The notes beneath the pieces were generated by a model. It was not told the DNA's origin, ran no database searches, and saw nothing but the letters and a program-made list of their open reading frames with translations. Below, in pieces: positions 3,853 through 15,704 of a stretch of 15,704 bases of DNA. The stretch is from a virus (taxonomy: Duplodnaviria; Heunggongvirae; Uroviricota; Caudoviricetes), in the IMG/VR virus record IMGVR_UViG_2703718817_000007; one strand, 5' to 3'. Position numbers and translations under genes: made by a program. The first letter of the stretch is position 1, and each line of letters opens with the position of its first letter.

Positions 3853-4848
3853 TCAGGCCAGCACACCAATCGCCAGTGCGCGATCGATAAAACGAAATAT
3901 CAGCTCCAGCTGGGAGCCATACTTCTCTTCAAATGCCACGGTATCCGCATGCAGCTCGTCGTGATGCTTTCTGCACAAAGGCAACACAAAAAGGTCATGC
4001 GCTTTTGTACCCATTCCCCCCTGACCGTGGCCTATCAGGTGGTGGGGATCATCAGCAGGTTTTCCACAACATGCGCACGGCTGCGTCTTAACCCAGCGCG
4101 TGTACTTTTCATTAACCCAGCGGTGACGTTTTGGGCGTAACATAAAAGACTCCGGCGACTCCGGATCCACTTTCAGCGCCAGCACCTTTTTCGCCTTATC
4201 CTGGATGATGCTGGTGGCAGGAACCGAAGGCACAAGGTCACTTTCCCGGGTAACAGACGGCACAACAGGCTTCGGTAATCTCAGTGCCTTACGGGCTGCA
4301 CTTTCCGGTAAGGCATCCGCCAGATCATTACGAATCAGCCACCAGCACAGTTCCGGCATTGTCACAACATGACTGTCATCAAAACCGAGATCCCGACGCA
4401 CAACAGACAACACCCAGCGGGCACAGTTATCCGTTGCCATTGATTCCAGCCGTTCCGTGAACTGATCGCGCAGCTGGTTATCGCAGTGCCAGCACAGACG
4501 GATTGCGCCCGGAGCGTGTCGCATTGTTGTCATGTTCTCGCTGTGCCAGTCGGAATGAGGCCACTGGCAGCCTTTTTCACGAAGTAACCAGCTTTCAAGA
4601 CATTCCACGCCACCAGCACGACGGATCACTGCCTCATTGCGGAACACGGCCCGAACGGCAGGATCATCCGCCAGCGGTTGTGATGCCGCCGGAACGGCAC
4701 CACTGGCGAAAGATGAATAACGTTCCGGCTCAGGCTCCAGCAGGACACGCCCCTGCATAAACAAGGGCATCAGCTCTGAACCTGGTCTGAACAATACGAT
4801 CCCCATACGCGGGGCAATTTCAGGGGTCAGTAGTGCTCTCACGGTCAC
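3853..4848 (-). CDS. Phage protein with C-terminal Cys/His-rich HNH-like motif (DUF968-like by recollection); function unknown
   Basis: ORF track 3853..4848 (GTG start overlapping the upstream stop; an alternative ATG at the RMGIVLF codon exists). C-terminus [43 protein letters not shown] has paired Cys and His-His motifs. Family name is from memory, unverified. Confidence 0.5.
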
Positions 4849-9777: not shown

Positions 9778-9864
9778 ATATGTACCTCCGGTATACATAT
9801 TACATGATTGAAATGAACCTTCAAGATACTTGTACCTTAACGGTACAAGGGTTTTAATTTCGTT
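9778..9864. promoter_or_regulatory. Immunity-switch operator/promoter region (OR): palindromic operators with divergent pR-like and pRM-like promoters
   Basis: Perfect palindrome CTTGTACC-N5-GGTACAAG at 9829-9849; imperfect ATATGTACC-tcc-GGTATACATAT at 9778-9800. Minus-strand promoter TTGAAG (9819-9824) -16- TAATAT (9797-9802) feeds cro. On the plus strand a TTTAAT-like -10 at 9852-9858 sits about 7 nt before the cI ATG, suggesting a leaderless cI mRNA. Confidence 0.6.
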
Positions 9865-10539
9865 ATGAAAACAATCCATGACATCCGGCGGTCTAACGCC
9901 AGAAAACTGAGAGATGGTGTTGGCGGGAATTCTTCCTTTGCCACTATGATTGATCGCGAGCCAACCCAGACCAGCAGGTTTATGGGAGATGGTGCTACTA
10001 AAAATATCGGTGACAGCATGGCACGACACATCGAAAAATGTTTCGACCTGCCTGTCGGATGGCTCGATCAAGAACACCAGACAACGAACATCACAAAAAA
10101 ACCTGATGTTTCAATCACTAATAAACAAATCACATTAGTCCCTGTCATATCATGGGTACAGGCCGGAGCATGGAAAGAAGTTGGATATTCTGAGGTTGAT
10201 TTGAGCACAGCAGAAACGTATCCCTGCCCTGTACCCTGTGGGGAAATGACTTATATCTTGCGGGTGATAGGTGATTCAATGATTGATGAGTACCGCCCGG
10301 GAGACATGATTTTTGTCGATCCTGAAGTACCTGCCTGCCACGGTGACGACGTTATTGCATTGATGCACGATACAGGTGAAACCACCTTCAAAAGGTTGAT
10401 AGAAGATGGGACACAGCGTTATCTCAAAGCGTTAAACCCAAACTGGCCTGAGCCTTACATTAAGATCAACGGTAATTGCTCTATAATTGGAACTGTGATT
10501 TTCTCAGGAAAACCAAGAAGATACAAAATCAAAGCCTAA
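9865..10539 (+). CDS. cI: CI-type prophage repressor (N-terminal HTH plus C-terminal LexA-like S24 peptidase domain), 224 aa
   Basis: ORF track 9865..10539, ATG start. C-terminal domain has GDSM (Ser nucleophile), ..TFKRLI.. (Lys) and VQAG linker motifs as in lambda cI/LexA. Confidence 0.85.
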   Translation: MKTIHDIRRSNARKLRDGVGGNSSFATMIDREPTQTSRFMGDGATKNIGDSMARHIEKCFDLPVGWLDQEHQTTNITKKPDVSITNKQITLVPVISWVQAGAWKEVGYSEVDLSTAETYPCPVPCGEMTYILRVIGDSMIDEYRPGDMIFVDPEVPACHGDDVIALMHDTGETTFKRLIEDGTQRYLKALNPNWPEPYIKINGNCSIIGTVIFSGKPRRYKIKA

Positions 10540-10551
10540 TCAATGTTTATG

Positions 10552-10576
10552 AACCTGCTTCGGCAGGTTTTTTTAT
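10552..10576 (+). terminator. Intrinsic terminator after cI
   Basis: Stem aacctgc (10552-10558) / gcaggtt (10563-10569), loop ttcg, followed by tttttat (10570-10576); 13 nt after the cI stop. Confidence 0.7.
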
Positions 10577-10578
10577 AC

Positions 10579-10610
10579 TTGACAATGTACCTTTGGGATA
10601 CATAATGTAC
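10579..10610 (+). promoter_or_regulatory. Strong sigma70-like promoter with embedded operator half-sites; candidate pL/OL
   Basis: TTGACA (10579-10584) -16 nt- CATAAT (10601-10606). ATGTACC at 10585-10591 and 10604-10610 with GGATACAT between them resemble the OR half-sites (TTGTACC/ATGTACC). Confidence 0.5.
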
Positions 10611-10690
10611 CCAAGAGAAACAACAAACAGGCAGGACGCCCACGAAGTAGCCGCCTGGAGCATATGAAGTCTAGGATGATTCATTAGCAA

Positions 10691-10718
10691 CAAAAAAGCG
10701 CCCTACAGGACGCTTAGC
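10691..10718 (-). terminator. Intrinsic terminator for the minus-strand moron gene
   Basis: On the minus strand: aagcgucc / gggcgcuu stem (one G-U pair), loop ugua, followed by uuuuguug. The plus strand has an A-run before it, so it should not stop plus-strand transcription. Confidence 0.5.
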
Positions 10719-10728
10719 TCTTTAACAA
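10717..10728 (+). promoter_or_regulatory. boxA-like element (exact match to the rrn boxA core GCTCTTTAACAA), about 105 nt downstream of the pL-like promoter
   Basis: gctctttaacaa at 10717-10728 on the plus strand; followed by a 6-bp hairpin gcaatc-taca-gattgc at 10749-10764 (boxB-like position). May alternatively be part of the cassette boundary repeat. Confidence 0.4.
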
Positions 10729-10747: not shown

Positions 10748-10753
10748 AGCAAT

Positions 10754-11245
10754 CTACAGATTGCCGTTAAGTTTTCTGGACAACTCCTCAATGGATGGAG
10801 GCGATACGTAATCCGGATTTTTATTCATCAGAAACTTATTTTCACAGTGGAGGCACCTGCTTTTATGAAAAAGCTCATCTTCGCTAACCGGGAATGGTTG
10901 AAGTATCGATACTATCTTTTGTCCAAAACATTTTGGGCAAAGATGCATGGTTATGCTGCCACCGTTCACGATTACCTCCTTCGAGTATACAAAAGTACCC
11001 GACTCAAGTTGGTTAAGGATATAGCCTTCCGTCTGAGCCTCAAAGTTTTCGAATTCTGCAATTTTAGCTTTGAGAGAAGCATTTATTTCTTGATAAGAGC
11101 CCACCAGTTCAACGAGAGACACGCATTCGCGCTGAATAGACGCAAGCTTTGAGTTCAGCTCACCAATAGCCGCATTTACTTCAGCTTGAGTTTTTGCCTC
11201 GTTCATTAGTTTTGCAATCTGGGCTGTTTCACGAATAGCCGTCAT
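10754..11245 (-). CDS. AT-rich moron gene: hypothetical protein with N-terminal coiled-coil-like region and C-terminal CxxC..CxxC zinc-ribbon, about 163 aa
   Basis: ORF track gives 10754..11533, but the first 96 codons are Arg/Pro-rich GC-rich sequence that overlaps the repeats and is unlikely to be coding; the ATG at 11243-11245 begins MTAIRETAQIAKLMNEAKTQAEVNAAIGELNSKLASIQ.. and ends ..HLCPKCFGQK..(24 aa)..CLHCENKF.. The ATG has no clear SD, so the start is uncertain. Base composition is clearly more AT-rich than flanking phage DNA. Confidence 0.5.
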   Translation of the reverse strand: MTAIRETAQIAKLMNEAKTQAEVNAAIGELNSKLASIQRECVSLVELVGSYQEINASLKAKIAEFENFEAQTEGYILNQLESGTFVYSKEVIVNGGSITMHLCPKCFGQKIVSILQPFPVSEDELFHKSRCLHCENKFLMNKNPDYVSPPSIEELSRKLNGNL

Positions 11246-11283
11246 TGCTGCCGTTAATTCAGCGATCACATTGAATACTCTTA

Positions 11284-11329
11284 TTGTTGTTGGGGATATC
11301 CAGATTAACCGAATCCTTGTTGTTGGGGA
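11284..11329. repeat. Right arm of the moron-bracketing inverted repeat plus a 13-bp direct repeat
   Basis: ttgttgttgggga occurs at 11284-11296 and again at 11317-11329; the first copy runs into ggatatccagatt (11294-11306), the reverse complement of 10727-10739. Confidence 0.6.
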
Positions 11330-11557
11330 ATAACCAGGTCCACCTCGCCTGATGTGGCTAAAAGCAGGCACATAACAGCTAAGTATTTTCAACCAGAGAG
11401 AATCCTTAGCGTTGTGGTGAATGCGGCTCAGCGCACGCGGGTTAAGGTTGAGGCTGACAGTCGACCTTCTGTGGATACCCACCCGCCTGGTGTGCAACCT
11501 TCGCCAGGCACCGGGAGGCACCCGGCACCACAACTTTATGCTGTGTGTAGTCCTGGC

Positions 11558-11592
11558 GGTACCAGTTTGTACCCTTGCTTCCGGCTGGTACC
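11558..11592. promoter_or_regulatory. Operator-like GGTACC palindromes upstream of the early-left operon
   Basis: GGTACCAGTTTGTACC at 11558-11573 (contains TTGTACC, the OR half-site) and GGTACC at 11587-11592. Confidence 0.35.
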
Positions 11593-11603
11593 GTCCTTTT
11601 TTG

Positions 11604-11690
11604 CAAAACAGAGAAGAGCATCACCGGACGACGGGCTCATAACCCAATCCATCCGGGCGGCTGCCACCGCAGGTGTTCTTCTCTGTTTTG
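11604..11690 (+). other. Large structured element: 14-bp perfect inverted repeat plus 4-bp extension enclosing a GC-rich loop of about 60 nt, 50 nt upstream of the yfdP-like start
   Basis: caaaacagagaaga (11604-11617) pairs with tcttctctgttttg (11677-11690); cacc (11622-11625) pairs with ggtg (11672-11675). Preceded by a T-run (11595-11602) but not followed by one on either strand, so it is not a canonical terminator. A second small hairpin gacc-ttgcag-ggtc lies at 11704-11717. Confidence 0.5.
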
Positions 11691-11739
11691 TGGAGAAACC
11701 AACCGACCTTGCAGGGTCGATATGATGAGGAGCAGCAAA

Positions 11740-12102
11740 ATGGCTAGCGAACGCAGTACTGATGTGCAGGCATTTATCGGGGAGCTGGACGGCGGCGTAT
11801 TTGAAACCAAAATCGGCGCAGTTCTCAGTGAGGTCGCTTCCGGTGTGATGAACACGAAAACCAAAGGGAAGGTCTCACTCAATCTGGAAATCGAACCGTT
11901 TGATGAGAACCGTGTGAAAATCAAACACAAACTCTCATATGTTCGCCCAACTAACCGCGGGAAAATTTCCGAAGAAGACACCACCGAAACGCCGATGTAT
12001 GTCAATCGCGGTGGTCGGCTGACTATTCTGCAGGAAGACCAGGGACAATTACTGACTCTTGCCGGTGAACCTGACGGAAAACTCCGCGCAGCAGGTCGTT
12101 AA
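11740..12102 (+). CDS. yfdP: YfdP-like hypothetical protein (first gene of the early-left operon), 120 aa
   Basis: ORF track 11575..12102 is the TTG-extended form; ATG at 11740 follows GAGGAG. Length and position (before a 274-aa gene) match CPS-53 yfdP as recalled. Confidence 0.55.
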   Translation: MASERSTDVQAFIGELDGGVFETKIGAVLSEVASGVMNTKTKGKVSLNLEIEPFDENRVKIKHKLSYVRPTNRGKISEEDTTETPMYVNRGGRLTILQEDQGQLLTLAGEPDGKLRAAGR

Positions 12103-12992: not shown

Positions 12993-13004
12993 TTTCATTA
13001 CTGC

Positions 13005-13030
13005 AAATGCCCCTGCGGGGGCATTTATGG
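13005..13030 (+). terminator. Terminator-like hairpin between the yfdQ-like and yfdR-like genes (weak)
   Basis: aaatgcccc (13005-13013) / ggggcattt (13018-13026), loop tgcg; the downstream tail is short (auuuaugg). Confidence 0.35.
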
Positions 13031-13119
13031 AAACGTAATTAACTCAATAATCACCGGATGGTGAGGGCTTCCTTTTACCAGAATTCAGCGCGGTGCAGTG
13101 CATATACGTGGAGAACAAA

Positions 13120-14314: not shown

Positions 14315-14685
14315 TGGAGCCATACAGCCTCACACTCGATGAGGCCTGTCAGTTTCTTAAGATATCCAGACCAACCGCCACCAACTGGATACGAACAGGC
14401 CGCCTACAGGCAACACGTAAAGATCCAACCAAGCCAAAATCTCCTTACCTCACAACACGGCAAGCTTGCATTGCGGCGCTTCAGTCTCCGCTGCATACTG
14501 TCCAGGTGAGCGCGGGTGATGGCATAACAGAGGAAAGAAAATGTCACTCTTCCGCAGAAATGAAATATGGTATGCCTCGTATTCGCTCCCGGGCGGGAAA
14601 CGAATTAAGGAATCTCTTGGCACAAAGGACAAGCGGCAAGCTCAGGAGTTGCACGACAAGCGAAAAGCAGAACTCTGGCGAGTAG
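14314..14685 (+). CDS. xis: Excisionase-like (Xis / AlpA-type HTH) protein; 3' end uncertain
   Basis: ATG at 14314 follows AAGAGGTGA and overlaps the upstream [38 protein letters not shown] parallels the lambda Xis pattern (YLTLQEW..SLETVRRWVRECRI..EYLF) as recalled. The frame has no stop until 14685, overlapping int by 145 nt, unusually long for an Xis. The ORF-track entry 14230..14685 is the GTG-extended form. Confidence 0.5.
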
Positions 14686-15704
14686 AAAAGCTAGGGGATT
14701 TACCTGATGTCACTTTTGAAGAGGCCTGCCTAAGATGGCTTGAGGAAAAAGCTGATAAAAAATCTCTCGATTCAGATAAAAGCCGGATTGAGTTCTGGCT
14801 TGAACATTTTGAGGGTATAAGGCTTAAAGATATCTCGGAGGCAAAGATTTACTCTGCTGTAAGCAGAATGCATAACAGAAAGACGAAAGAAATATGGAAA
14901 CAGAAAGTTCAGGCCGCCATCAGGAAAGGTAAAGAACCGCCTGTTTATGAACCAAAGCCAGTATCAACTCAGACAAAGGCAAAGCATCTTGCCATGATAA
15001 AGGCCATTCTCCGTGCTGCAGAACGCGACTGGAAGTGGCTGGAAAAAGCGCCTGTCATCAAGATACCAGCGGTCAGAAACAAGCGAGTCAGATGGCTGGA
15101 AAAGGAGGAAGCAAAACGCCTTATTGATGAGTGCCCCGAACCACTGAAATCTGTCGTCAAGTTTGCGCTGGCAACTGGTCTGAGAAAGTCGAACATCATA
15201 AATCTGGAATGGCAACAAATCGACATGCAGCGACGAGTTGCCTGGGTGAATCCAGAAGAGAGCAAATCAAACCGCGCCATTGGTGTGGCGCTGAACGATA
15301 CCGCCTGTAAAGTGTTGCGTGATCAAATAGGCAAGCATCACAAATGGGTGTTTGTACATACCAAGGCGGCTAAGCGAGCAGATGGAACATCAACGCCTGC
15401 GGTCAGGAAGATGCGCATCGACAGCAAGACATCATGGCTATCAGCTTGTCGTCGTGCAGGAATTGAAGATTTCCGTTTCCATGACCTCAGACACACCTGG
15501 GCAAGCTGGCTGATCCAGTCAGGCGTCCCATTATCAGTGCTTCAGGAAATGGGCGGATGGGAGTCCATAGAAATGGTTCGTAGGTATGCTCACCTTGCGC
15601 CTAATCATTTGACAGAGCATGCAAGGAAAATAGACGACATTTTTGGTGATAATGTCCCAAATATGTCCCACTGTGGAATTATGGAGGATATAAAGAAGGC
15701 GTAA
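14541..15704 (+). CDS. int: Tyrosine site-specific integrase (DLP12 IntD-like by length and N-terminus), 387 aa
   Basis: ORF track 14541..15704; SD GAGGAAAG; catalytic R..HxxR..Y signature near the C-terminus ([11 protein letters not shown].., ..MVRRYAHL). Stop coincides with the window end, so the attachment site lies outside. Confidence 0.9.

Follow-up and report, generated by a model that had tools for sequence, protein, structure and literature searches.

The closest described relatives of the element discussed here are prophage-encoded small RNAs (sRNAs). STnc100 is represented by 11 annotated copies with RNA-seq reads in enterohaemorrhagic Escherichia coli (EHEC), and one of them, STnc100_4, has been confirmed by Northern blot (PMC5331693). 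PasD1 and PasD2 are abundant, Hfq-dependent RNAs that appear as discrete species on Northern blots and have targets identified by RIL-seq (PMC8550237). A common ancestor has been proposed for PasD and STnc100 (2026 preprint, bioRxiv 10.64898/2026.05.13.724894), and a member of the family has also been found downstream of stx2 (PMC12370729). The region considered here, 494 bp at positions 11246-11739, lies in a stretch of 15,704 nucleotides from IMG/VR record IMGVR_UViG_2703718817_000007, referred to throughout as the window. Judging from its sequence, it very probably holds a divergent, "ymfH-type" member of the prophage STnc100/PasD superfamily, that is, a structured RNA gene with a terminator. 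This conserved RNA, at 11411-11534, and its terminator are the main feature of the region and were absent from a first-pass annotation made from the sequence alone. That annotation did offer a small RNA as one possibility, which holds as to kind though not as to place: the RNA consists of the core at 11411-11534 with its linker and terminator, and not of the stem at 11604-11690 to which attention had been drawn.

Family membership and fold

Homology to the family is seen with two covariance models. Run in E-value mode, Rfam RF02076 (STnc100) matches the window at 11381-11604 (+) over its full length (model positions 1-206) with 40.3 bits and E = 5.4e-7, which is below the curated gathering threshold of 47 bits; at gathering thresholds, Rfam gives no match anywhere in the window. 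The model is also sub-threshold in five homologues (e14, ST64B, phiES15, SJ46 and P1), with 29-42 bits and E values of 4.5e-6 to 8e-3. The other model, R1, was built from 58 aligned canonical cores of Kosakonia, Enterobacter, Klebsiella, Pantoea, Erwinia and other genera, with all ymfH-type sequences excluded, the family members having been collected by an invariant 3' motif of 20 nt in one genome per species. It matches the window at 11410-11537 with 74.4 bits and E = 2.6e-17, a score that is partly built in, since the collecting motif is also present in the window, and it matches the homologues with 58-79 bits. PasD1 matches R1 at 33.5 bits; its mapped 5' end coincides with base 1 of the closing stem, with a sigma70 promoter just upstream, and its mapped seed, UGUGAG, is in the linker ahead of the terminator. 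A further R1 match in the window, at 12996-13105 (15.6 bits, E = 0.023), was treated as noise. Two other identities were considered and rejected: DicF, a weak match at 11542-11596 (15.7 bits) that covers the terminator only, and PasB, of interest for its broad distribution in extraintestinal pathogenic E. coli (ExPEC), but published as an 83-nt RNA with an unrelated probe sequence.

The elements of the cassette, all on the + strand, are as follows; the core is defined by the RF02076 and R1 matches together with covariation, and the P0 hairpin by an inverted repeat that is also paired in the minimum free energy (MFE) structure.

11340-11378 (+): conserved leader, with a hairpin GCCTG...CAGGC at 11347-11369 followed by the motif CACATAACAG
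11378-11410 (+): P0 hairpin, GCTAAGtATTtTC/GAgAATcCTTAGC, immediately 5' of the core
11411-11534 (+): structured core, 124 nt
11411-11419/11526-11534 (+): closing stem of the core, 9 bp
11423-11438 (+): hairpin H1
11439-11442/11481-11484 (+): helix P2
11485-11492/11502-11509 (+): helix P4
11511-11525 (+): hairpin P5, invariant
11444-11450 with 11495-11501 (+): H-type pseudoknot, AAGGTTG with CAACCTT in the P4 loop
11535-11554 (+): single-stranded linker, 20 nt, TTTATGCTGTGTGTAGTCCT, a candidate seed/Hfq region
11555-11602 (+): intrinsic terminator, GGCGGTACCAG at 11555-11565 and CTGGTACCGTC at 11585-11595, with a 19-nt loop, followed by C and T6
11600-11694 (+): 95-nt hairpin enclosing the 87-nt repeat 11604-11690, with a lower stem of about 23 bp

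In an alignment of 30 unique ymfH-type variants from viral contigs, 93.7% of the cells assigned to helices are standard pairs, as against 36-42% after a shift of the partners by 1-3 columns. In eight pairs, three of them in the pseudoknot, both sides have changed, though the changes stem from a handful of lineages and so represent few independent events. The pseudoknot reads AAGGUUG/CAACCUU in the window, UGGUUA/UAACCA in P1 and AAGGCUG/CAGCCUU in phiES15. Across 93 unique members, the complementarity of this segment to its own P4 loop averages 5.84, compared with 4.21 (standard deviation 1.22) for the loops of other members and 4.07 for shuffled loops, and a score of at least 6 is reached by 70% of own pairs and 17% of cross pairs. 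The published nested models of the family do not, to our knowledge, include the pseudoknot. The RNA is encoded on the + strand, because the G-U pairs and the T-run fit one strand only.

The block that is conserved as RNA begins at about 11340, and the leader at 11340-11378 is kept in the Escherichia, Cronobacter and Salmonella lineages. The P0 pairing is maintained with other sequences in P1 (AAGAGCATTC/GAATGCTCTT), ST64B (ATAAGAGTT/AACTCTTAT) and phiES15 (ATGAAGCGCATT/AATGCGCTTCAT). An (A)CAYAACAG motif stands before P0 in the window and directly after the CCA end of a tRNA in P1-like contigs, and the leader is possibly a 5' processing signal. The sequence GGCAC-N-AACAGC was also looked at as a sigma54 site and rejected, its spacing being off by one and the motif not being kept in P1. 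The leader hairpin at 11347-11369 might conceivably be a remnant of the 3' half of a tRNA.

The linker, TGCTGTGTG(T/A)AGTC (as RNA, UGCUGUGUG(U/A)AGUC), is conserved in the E. coli, Salmonella and Cronobacter lineages despite differing helices on either side of it. The hairpin that follows forms a 13-bp stem in the MFE structure and is aligned to the STnc100 terminator in the RF02076 match. In the same position, ST64B has GTCGGCGTC/GACGCCGAC and T5, a fully compensated stem of other sequence, and phiES15 has GCCCGC/GCGGGC and T7. With a GC-rich hairpin, a T-run that lies 3' of it on the + strand only, and conservation of the structure, 11555-11602 has the sequence and structure of an intrinsic terminator. 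The GGTACC palindromes pointed out in the first-pass annotation (11558-11563 and 11588-11593), along with a TTGTACC half-site shared with the cI operators (11567-11573), are indeed there, but rather than being operator-like the two palindromes are the two arms of this terminator.

Distribution, the long hairpin and the direct repeats

DNA matching the 494-bp region is present in 3,008 of 5,426 complete E. coli genomes, where it is annotated as "hypothetical protein", as a "frameshifted" pseudogene, as ymfH of prophage e14 in K-12, or not at all. It is carried by phages SfV, SfII, SfIV and mEp460-like phages and, at about 77% identity, by Salmonella ST64B; remoter relatives occur in Cronobacter phiES15 and in P1, SJ46 and RCS47. 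In the lambdoid phages (e14, SfV, ST64B, phiES15), the repressor gene and the first early-left open reading frame (ORF) flank the element in every case.

The other contexts are quite different. P1 itself has an unannotated family member between upl and tciA (NC_005856, about 70077-70204; locus L004, 2501-2628; 67 bits with R1), in a tRNA-bearing stretch 3' of the annotated ban promoters that also has a "dicF-like region". In P1-like viral contigs (L086, 4255-4645 (-); L046; L077), the RNA is found inside tRNA arrays, directly after tRNA-Thr or tRNA-Ser. One such array runs tRNA-Thr, an 85-nt P0 leader, the core, 5 nt and tRNA-Ser, with no linker and no separate terminator, and other P1-like contigs have T6 immediately 3' of the closing stem; this position implies maturation by tRNA-processing enzymes. 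In Superficieibacter genomes (L168, L169, L187), canonical STnc100-type cores are repeated in tandem, 2-5 to an array at a spacing of about 255 nt, and each scores 75-97 bits. In phage mEp460 (L128, 2354-2492), the core is a degenerate remnant (22.5 bits; ...CACCGGTCACCACAAC) with the terminator and the 95-nt hairpin intact, this 3' part being all that is shared by many Stx2c and cdtI phages. ST64B also has a clear match to isrK (L005, 21-97 (-)), which at 64.3 bits exceeds the gathering score; it falls within the annotated sb41 ORF, a few kb away from the element.

Downstream of the terminator, the 14-nt perfect inverted repeat reported earlier, CAAAACAGAGAAGA at 11604-11617 and TCTTCTCTGTTTTG at 11677-11690, was found again and extends to 24 nt at 83% complementarity. 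The 95-nt hairpin that it forms has an MFE of -56.6 kcal/mol (z = -4.7 relative to shuffled sequences). Compensatory change in the 11604-11690 stem, proposed as a check on the structure, is seen to a limited extent among variants from E. coli and Salmonella: 33 pairs are conserved, one G-C is compensated as A-U in Salmonella and several pairs change by way of G-U, at low divergence, so that covariation lends the hairpin modest support. All 101 copies have the hairpin joined to the terminator upstream, whereas the sequence beyond GTGGAGAAAC(C/T)AA varies (yfdP, a yfdR-type junction, xisE or other sequence). Because the upstream join is constant and the downstream partner variable, the hairpin belongs to the RNA cassette and not to yfdP, and there is a mosaic boundary just after GTGGAGAAAC(C/T)AA. 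Beyond this lies the 5' end of the next cassette:

11704-11742 (+): 5' end of the yfdP cassette, with hairpin CGACC-TTGCAG-GGTCG at 11704-11719, Shine-Dalgarno sequence GAGGAG at 11727-11732 and start codon at 11740

ST64B has another hairpin (TGGCGG/CCGCCA) in place of the one at 11704-11719. Farther along the window, at 13009-13045 upstream of yfdR, the hairpin GCCCCTGCGGGGGC and its flank are a sequence that elsewhere is fused directly to the 95-nt hairpin, with yfdP-yfdQ absent; it marks a gene-cassette boundary. The weak, probably spurious R1 match at 12996-13105 overlaps this sequence.

At the other end of the region, the two direct repeats noted earlier, TTGTTGTTGGGGA at 11284-11296 and 11317-11329, are present and 33 bp apart as described. 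They are part of a tandem duplication of about 28-33 nt that recurs in many related phages, and in at least four unrelated morons of the minus strand the same repeats abut the start codon. A -10-like hexamer on that strand lies between the two copies, about 20 nt downstream of one and just upstream of the other; it is a perfect TATAAT in locus L016 and GTTAAT in the window. From this we infer that the TTGTTGTTGGGGA repeats are part of the control region (probably promoter or 5' untranslated region, UTR) of the divergent moron at 10754-11269 and lie outside the RNA cassette; the segment 11270-11339 looks like a shared promoter/5' UTR or a recombination linker for moron exchange. The region had also been described as GC-rich, which is true only in moderation: it has 52.6% G+C, and 55.7% over 11340-11700, compared with 47.5% for the window.

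Genomic setting, expression and rival explanations

The window is part of a lambdoid prophage, which in matching genomes is integrated beside an Arg tRNA gene, and its end falls inside intD (14541-15704). The immunity region is of the e14 type, with the Cro-like gene on the minus strand. The features leading up to the cassette are:

9865-10539 (+): LexA-family repressor gene ymfK/cohE, its protein accession identical to that of K-12 e14 (WP_000848748.1)
10551-10570: terminator of the repressor gene
10579-10606 (+): sigma70 match TTGACA-16-CATAAT, 11 of 12 positions, the best of the area, directly 3' of the repressor terminator
10754-11269 (-): moron of 171 codons, PHROG 1244, function unassigned
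between 11269 and 11740: the gap under study, from this moron to the yfdP start codon

Operator-type sites of the form TGTACC-N5-KRTACA overlap and follow the match at 10579-10606 (TGTACCTTTGGGATACA at 10586-10602 and TGTACCCAAGAGAAACA at 10606-10622), which by its sequence is likely the early-left promoter. K-12 e14 has the same hexamers and all but one base of the spacer, and there the promoter runs directly into ymfJ. Between it and the RNA lies an exact 12-mer boxA of the rrn/P22 type, GCTCTTTAACAA at 10717-10728 (+), which is outside the gap and is the sole match in the window. It has a hairpin before it at 10696-10715 (the moron terminator, on the other strand) and one after it at 10749-10764. 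Of 251 fetched loci, 42 have this boxA, and where positions were compared it is on the RNA's strand, about 700-950 nt before the RNA; e14 lacks it and has a + strand ORF in its place. The boxA might shield the early-left transcript from Rho during its antisense passage through the moron.

We consider it probable that the cassette is a small-RNA gene of the STnc100/PasD type, read in the direction of the early-left operon yfdP...int (+ strand), and that it works as follows. The RNA would have no promoter of its own and would be transcribed from the repressor-controlled promoter at 10579-10606 upon prophage induction; processing near CACAUAACAG/P0 would generate its 5' end, in the manner of the P1-like tRNA arrays. 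Most transcripts would end at the terminator, giving an RNA of about 190-225 nt, and the remainder would read through the long hairpin into yfdP...int. The linker and U-tail may form an Hfq/seed module, the linker serving as the seed, which by analogy with PasD1 and PasD2 would act in trans on host or phage mRNAs. This last part, trans action by base pairing, draws on that analogy and is given slightly under an even chance. The 95-nt hairpin might be an RNase III-type processing site or an anti-Rho or stabilising leader element; since it is downstream of the terminator, it cannot be the antiterminator of the latter. In e14, ymfH has been placed in an intE-xisE-ymfH operon and in the YmfT (prophage induction) iModulon (PMC12132413). 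In a subset of the canonical relatives, a sigma70 promoter ends 4-5 nt before the closing stem; too few ymfH-type sequences were captured in that survey for it to inform on this type.

A number of points weigh against this account. Apart from the sub-threshold Rfam score and the partly built-in R1 score given above, the sequence of H1 is unlike that of canonical STnc100. A scan of the + strand for sigma70-like promoters from 10607 to the RNA gave none at the scan threshold, and with no promoter upstream, about 770 nt of transcription antisense to the moron would therefore be needed. A search within the window for targets complementary to the linker gave nothing beyond chance, and ymfH is not mentioned in the K-12 Hfq dataset that was searched. 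The core of the P1-like tRNA array stands without a linker or separate terminator, which suggests that the fold, and not a seed, is the functional part. Finally, the role of the 95-nt hairpin rests entirely on inference.

That tRNA-array arrangement is the starting point of a different explanation, in which the core is an autonomous RNA, comparable to a tRNA gene, that acts through its fold instead of by base pairing and could serve a host RNA-processing or defence factor as decoy, sponge or ligand, with linker and terminator serving only to end the transcription unit in lambdoid contexts. Besides the P1-like copies that have neither linker nor terminator, or just T6 after the closing stem, it draws on the Superficieibacter arrays of 2-5 copies, on junction and loop nucleotides that are invariant (GGUGAAU, the CUNNGCG loop, CACCGGGAGGCACCCGGCACC) where the helices covary (a combination, with the pseudoknot, that is characteristic of tertiary-structured RNAs), and on the position of P5, which abuts the 3' strand of the closing stem much as a T-arm does an acceptor stem, as read from the sequence. 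Over-expression of a "ymfH" clone has also been found to trigger the retron-Sen2 toxin RcaT (bioRxiv 10.1101/2020.06.22.160242), though this result was read as a protein effect. On the other side, PasD, a member of the family, is Hfq-dependent and has a seed that lies beyond the core (PMC8550237), a search of the window with ARAGORN gave no tRNA-like gene, and there is no known partner protein and no gene that is consistently adjacent. We regard this explanation as unlikely, if worth keeping in view, and give a little less weight again to its broader form, in which the pseudoknotted core is a free-standing structured phage RNA of tRNA arrays, tandem arrays and early-operon heads, a fold-acting decoy or ligand that could explain the retron trigger. 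A role in cis, as an antitermination or attenuation RNA, put-like or riboswitch-like, for yfdP...int in a phage that lacks N, appears improbable; its put-like form had been raised in the first-pass annotation. The order of parts would suit it: a structured domain is followed by a short linker, a terminator and ORFs of the same orientation, and in five phage lineages this arrangement opens the early-left operon. An N-like ORF is not evident, and in the window the P4 3' strand CGCCAGG could pair with CCUGGCG at the foot of the terminator. This alternative pairing, the basis for considering riboswitch-like switching, is however conserved in neither ST64B nor phiES15, and the switch was rejected. 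The 87-nt hairpin is downstream of the terminator that would have to be overridden, and relatives occur in promoter-to-terminator sRNA genes (PasD1), in tandem arrays, in tRNA arrays and downstream of stx2 (PMC12370729), where a role in cis is not obvious. Nor did similarity to put emerge: R1, run with filters off on HK022 24000-31000, the expected immunity and put region (immunity genes and put sites are unannotated in it), reached at best 5.2 bits, E = 1.3, and the Rfam E-value-mode search of the window matched no put family. The boxA, boxB and N-like ORF of a lambda nutL/N arrangement are not found together in the region either, the sole boxA being at 10717-10728 and no conserved ORF being present in 11270-11739.

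The two remaining explanations are still less probable. That the region is a degraded protein gene, a frameshifted ymfH, is the view of RefSeq, and the chance that it is right is in our opinion very small. The earlier statement that there is no credible ORF agrees with the lack of any conserved ORF in 11270-11739, but RefSeq/PGAP nonetheless labels 11414-11725 "hypothetical protein, frameshifted", and its e14 homologue "protein YmfH". In a formal sense this pseudogene is the recognisable degraded gene that, according to the first-pass annotation, an alignment might reveal; the alignments themselves show that ymfH has no conserved ORF. For a protein it can be said that the window has an uninterrupted 123-codon ORF with a GTG start at 11354-11725, that PHROG 33599 matches residues 82-117 of this ORF (a translation of the long hairpin only), and that 7 of 12 core substitutions relative to ST64B fall at the third codon position of its frame. 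The frame is nevertheless broken in four lineages: by three 1-nt insertions relative to e14, by a one-T difference (T5/T6) in the T-run of the terminator in SfV, by a 1-nt deletion in the core in ST64B and by a stop in phiES15. In the hairpin part, the substitutions that separate E. coli from Salmonella are spread 4/7/6 over the codon positions, showing no positional bias, with 4 synonymous to 9 non-synonymous codons, and the ratio in the core is 4:5. The ORF has no ATG, no Shine-Dalgarno sequence and no match to a Pfam or NCBIfam family; it passes straight through the intrinsic terminator, and the substitutions seen are those that keep the RNA helices paired. P5 is damaged in the e14 copy of ymfH (L003, 3572-3698), its loop lacking one base and its stem carrying a G-to-A change; of the full copies this one scores lowest (58.5 bits), so that it may be decaying. 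As to a second early-left operator/promoter with a cI site at 11558-11573, also put forward earlier, it is scarcely credible. TTGTACC at 11567-11573 does equal one operator half-site, and GGTACC is palindromic and present twice, but the proposed site consists of the terminator 5' arm and loop, the two copies of GGTACC form base pairs with one another in a stem that is replaced in ST64B, and e14, whose repressor is the same (WP_000848748.1), has TTTTTCC in place of TTGTACC. A search of the whole window for TGTACC-N5-KRTACA with up to two mismatches found no site within 11246-11739, and the region has no promoter-like site on either strand. The matches obtained were at 9781, 9814 and 9831 (the right operator, 9781-9847, in the cro-repressor interval), at 10586 and 10606, and weakly at 4777 and 10230; the last of these, TGTACCCTGTGGGGAAA at 10230-10246, is inside the repressor gene, has two mismatches and is possibly due to chance.

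Comparison with known systems

Recognition of the element as an RNA gene would correct the records of about 3,000 E. coli genomes, K-12 e14 included, and of phages SfV, SfII, SfIV, ST64B and P1, which label it "YmfH" or "frameshifted" or leave it unannotated, and would extend the STnc100/PasD family beyond the reach of the Rfam threshold. The conserved pseudoknot and the occurrence in tRNA arrays suggest that the family comprises more than seed-pairing sRNAs; if the core does act through its fold, STnc100, PasD and ymfH would make up a new class of phage structured RNA, K-12 ymfH would be an RNA gene, and the published "ymfH" trigger of retron-Sen2 may be an RNA effect. For lambdoid phages without N, in which the early-left transcript would first meet a structured RNA and a strong terminator, the expression of yfdP...xis/int becomes a concrete question.

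Among early-operon RNA signals, putL and putR of HK022 are alike in being structured RNA in the early operon of an N-less lambdoid phage, upstream of a terminator. HK022 put consists of two stem-loops, about 70 nt, close to the promoter; the window core is a pseudoknotted, multi-helix structure of 124 nt about 800 nt from the promoter, with no similarity to put detected in sequence or structure. The lambda N leader has an RNase III-sensitive hairpin, and with this and the early intercistronic RNase III sites of T7 the 95-nt hairpin shares a predicted lower stem of about 23 bp, a place in an untranslated leader, and a location between promoter-proximal RNA signals and the first early-left ORF. 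It has no sequence similarity to them, follows a terminator and travels with an sRNA cassette.

The e14 copy, recorded as YmfH, is 89.5% identical in DNA over 11340-11729 of the window and occupies the same place downstream of an identical repressor; it differs in being followed by xisE and not yfdP, and the protein reading is not conserved. PasD1 and PasD2 (EcOnc13, in enteropathogenic E. coli (EPEC) and EHEC) are likewise prophage-encoded and have the same arrangement of structured 5' core, single-stranded linker and terminator. Unlike the window element, they have their own sigma70 promoter, are found beside Q, LpxR and lysis genes and have a degenerate P5; their linker, with seed UGUGAG, differs from UGCUGUGUGUAGUC of the window, and Hfq dependence and targets are known for PasD only. 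STnc100, a multi-copy family of prophage sRNAs in Salmonella and E. coli, is matched over the full length of its model, and both have the invariant GGUGAAU, the CUNNGCG hairpin loop and CACCGGGAGGCACCCGGCACC, the same order of helices (closing stem, H1, P2, P4, P5) with a pseudoknot that joins the P4 loop to the segment following H1, an intrinsic terminator 3' of the core, and a prophage location. The H1 stem is GCGGC/GC-CGC in the window and CCCCC/GGGG in STnc100, though the position of H1 and its CUNNGCG loop are kept; the window element is also set apart by its leader and additional 5' stem P0, by the lack of an obvious promoter for it alone and by its RefSeq label as a protein. STnc100 occurs in the Q/lysis/stx region, and the ymfH type in the lambdoid early-left operon or in P1-type tRNA arrays. 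The ymfH type is distinct from STnc100 and PasD in H1, in its P0 leader, in genomic context and, apparently, in its mode of transcription.

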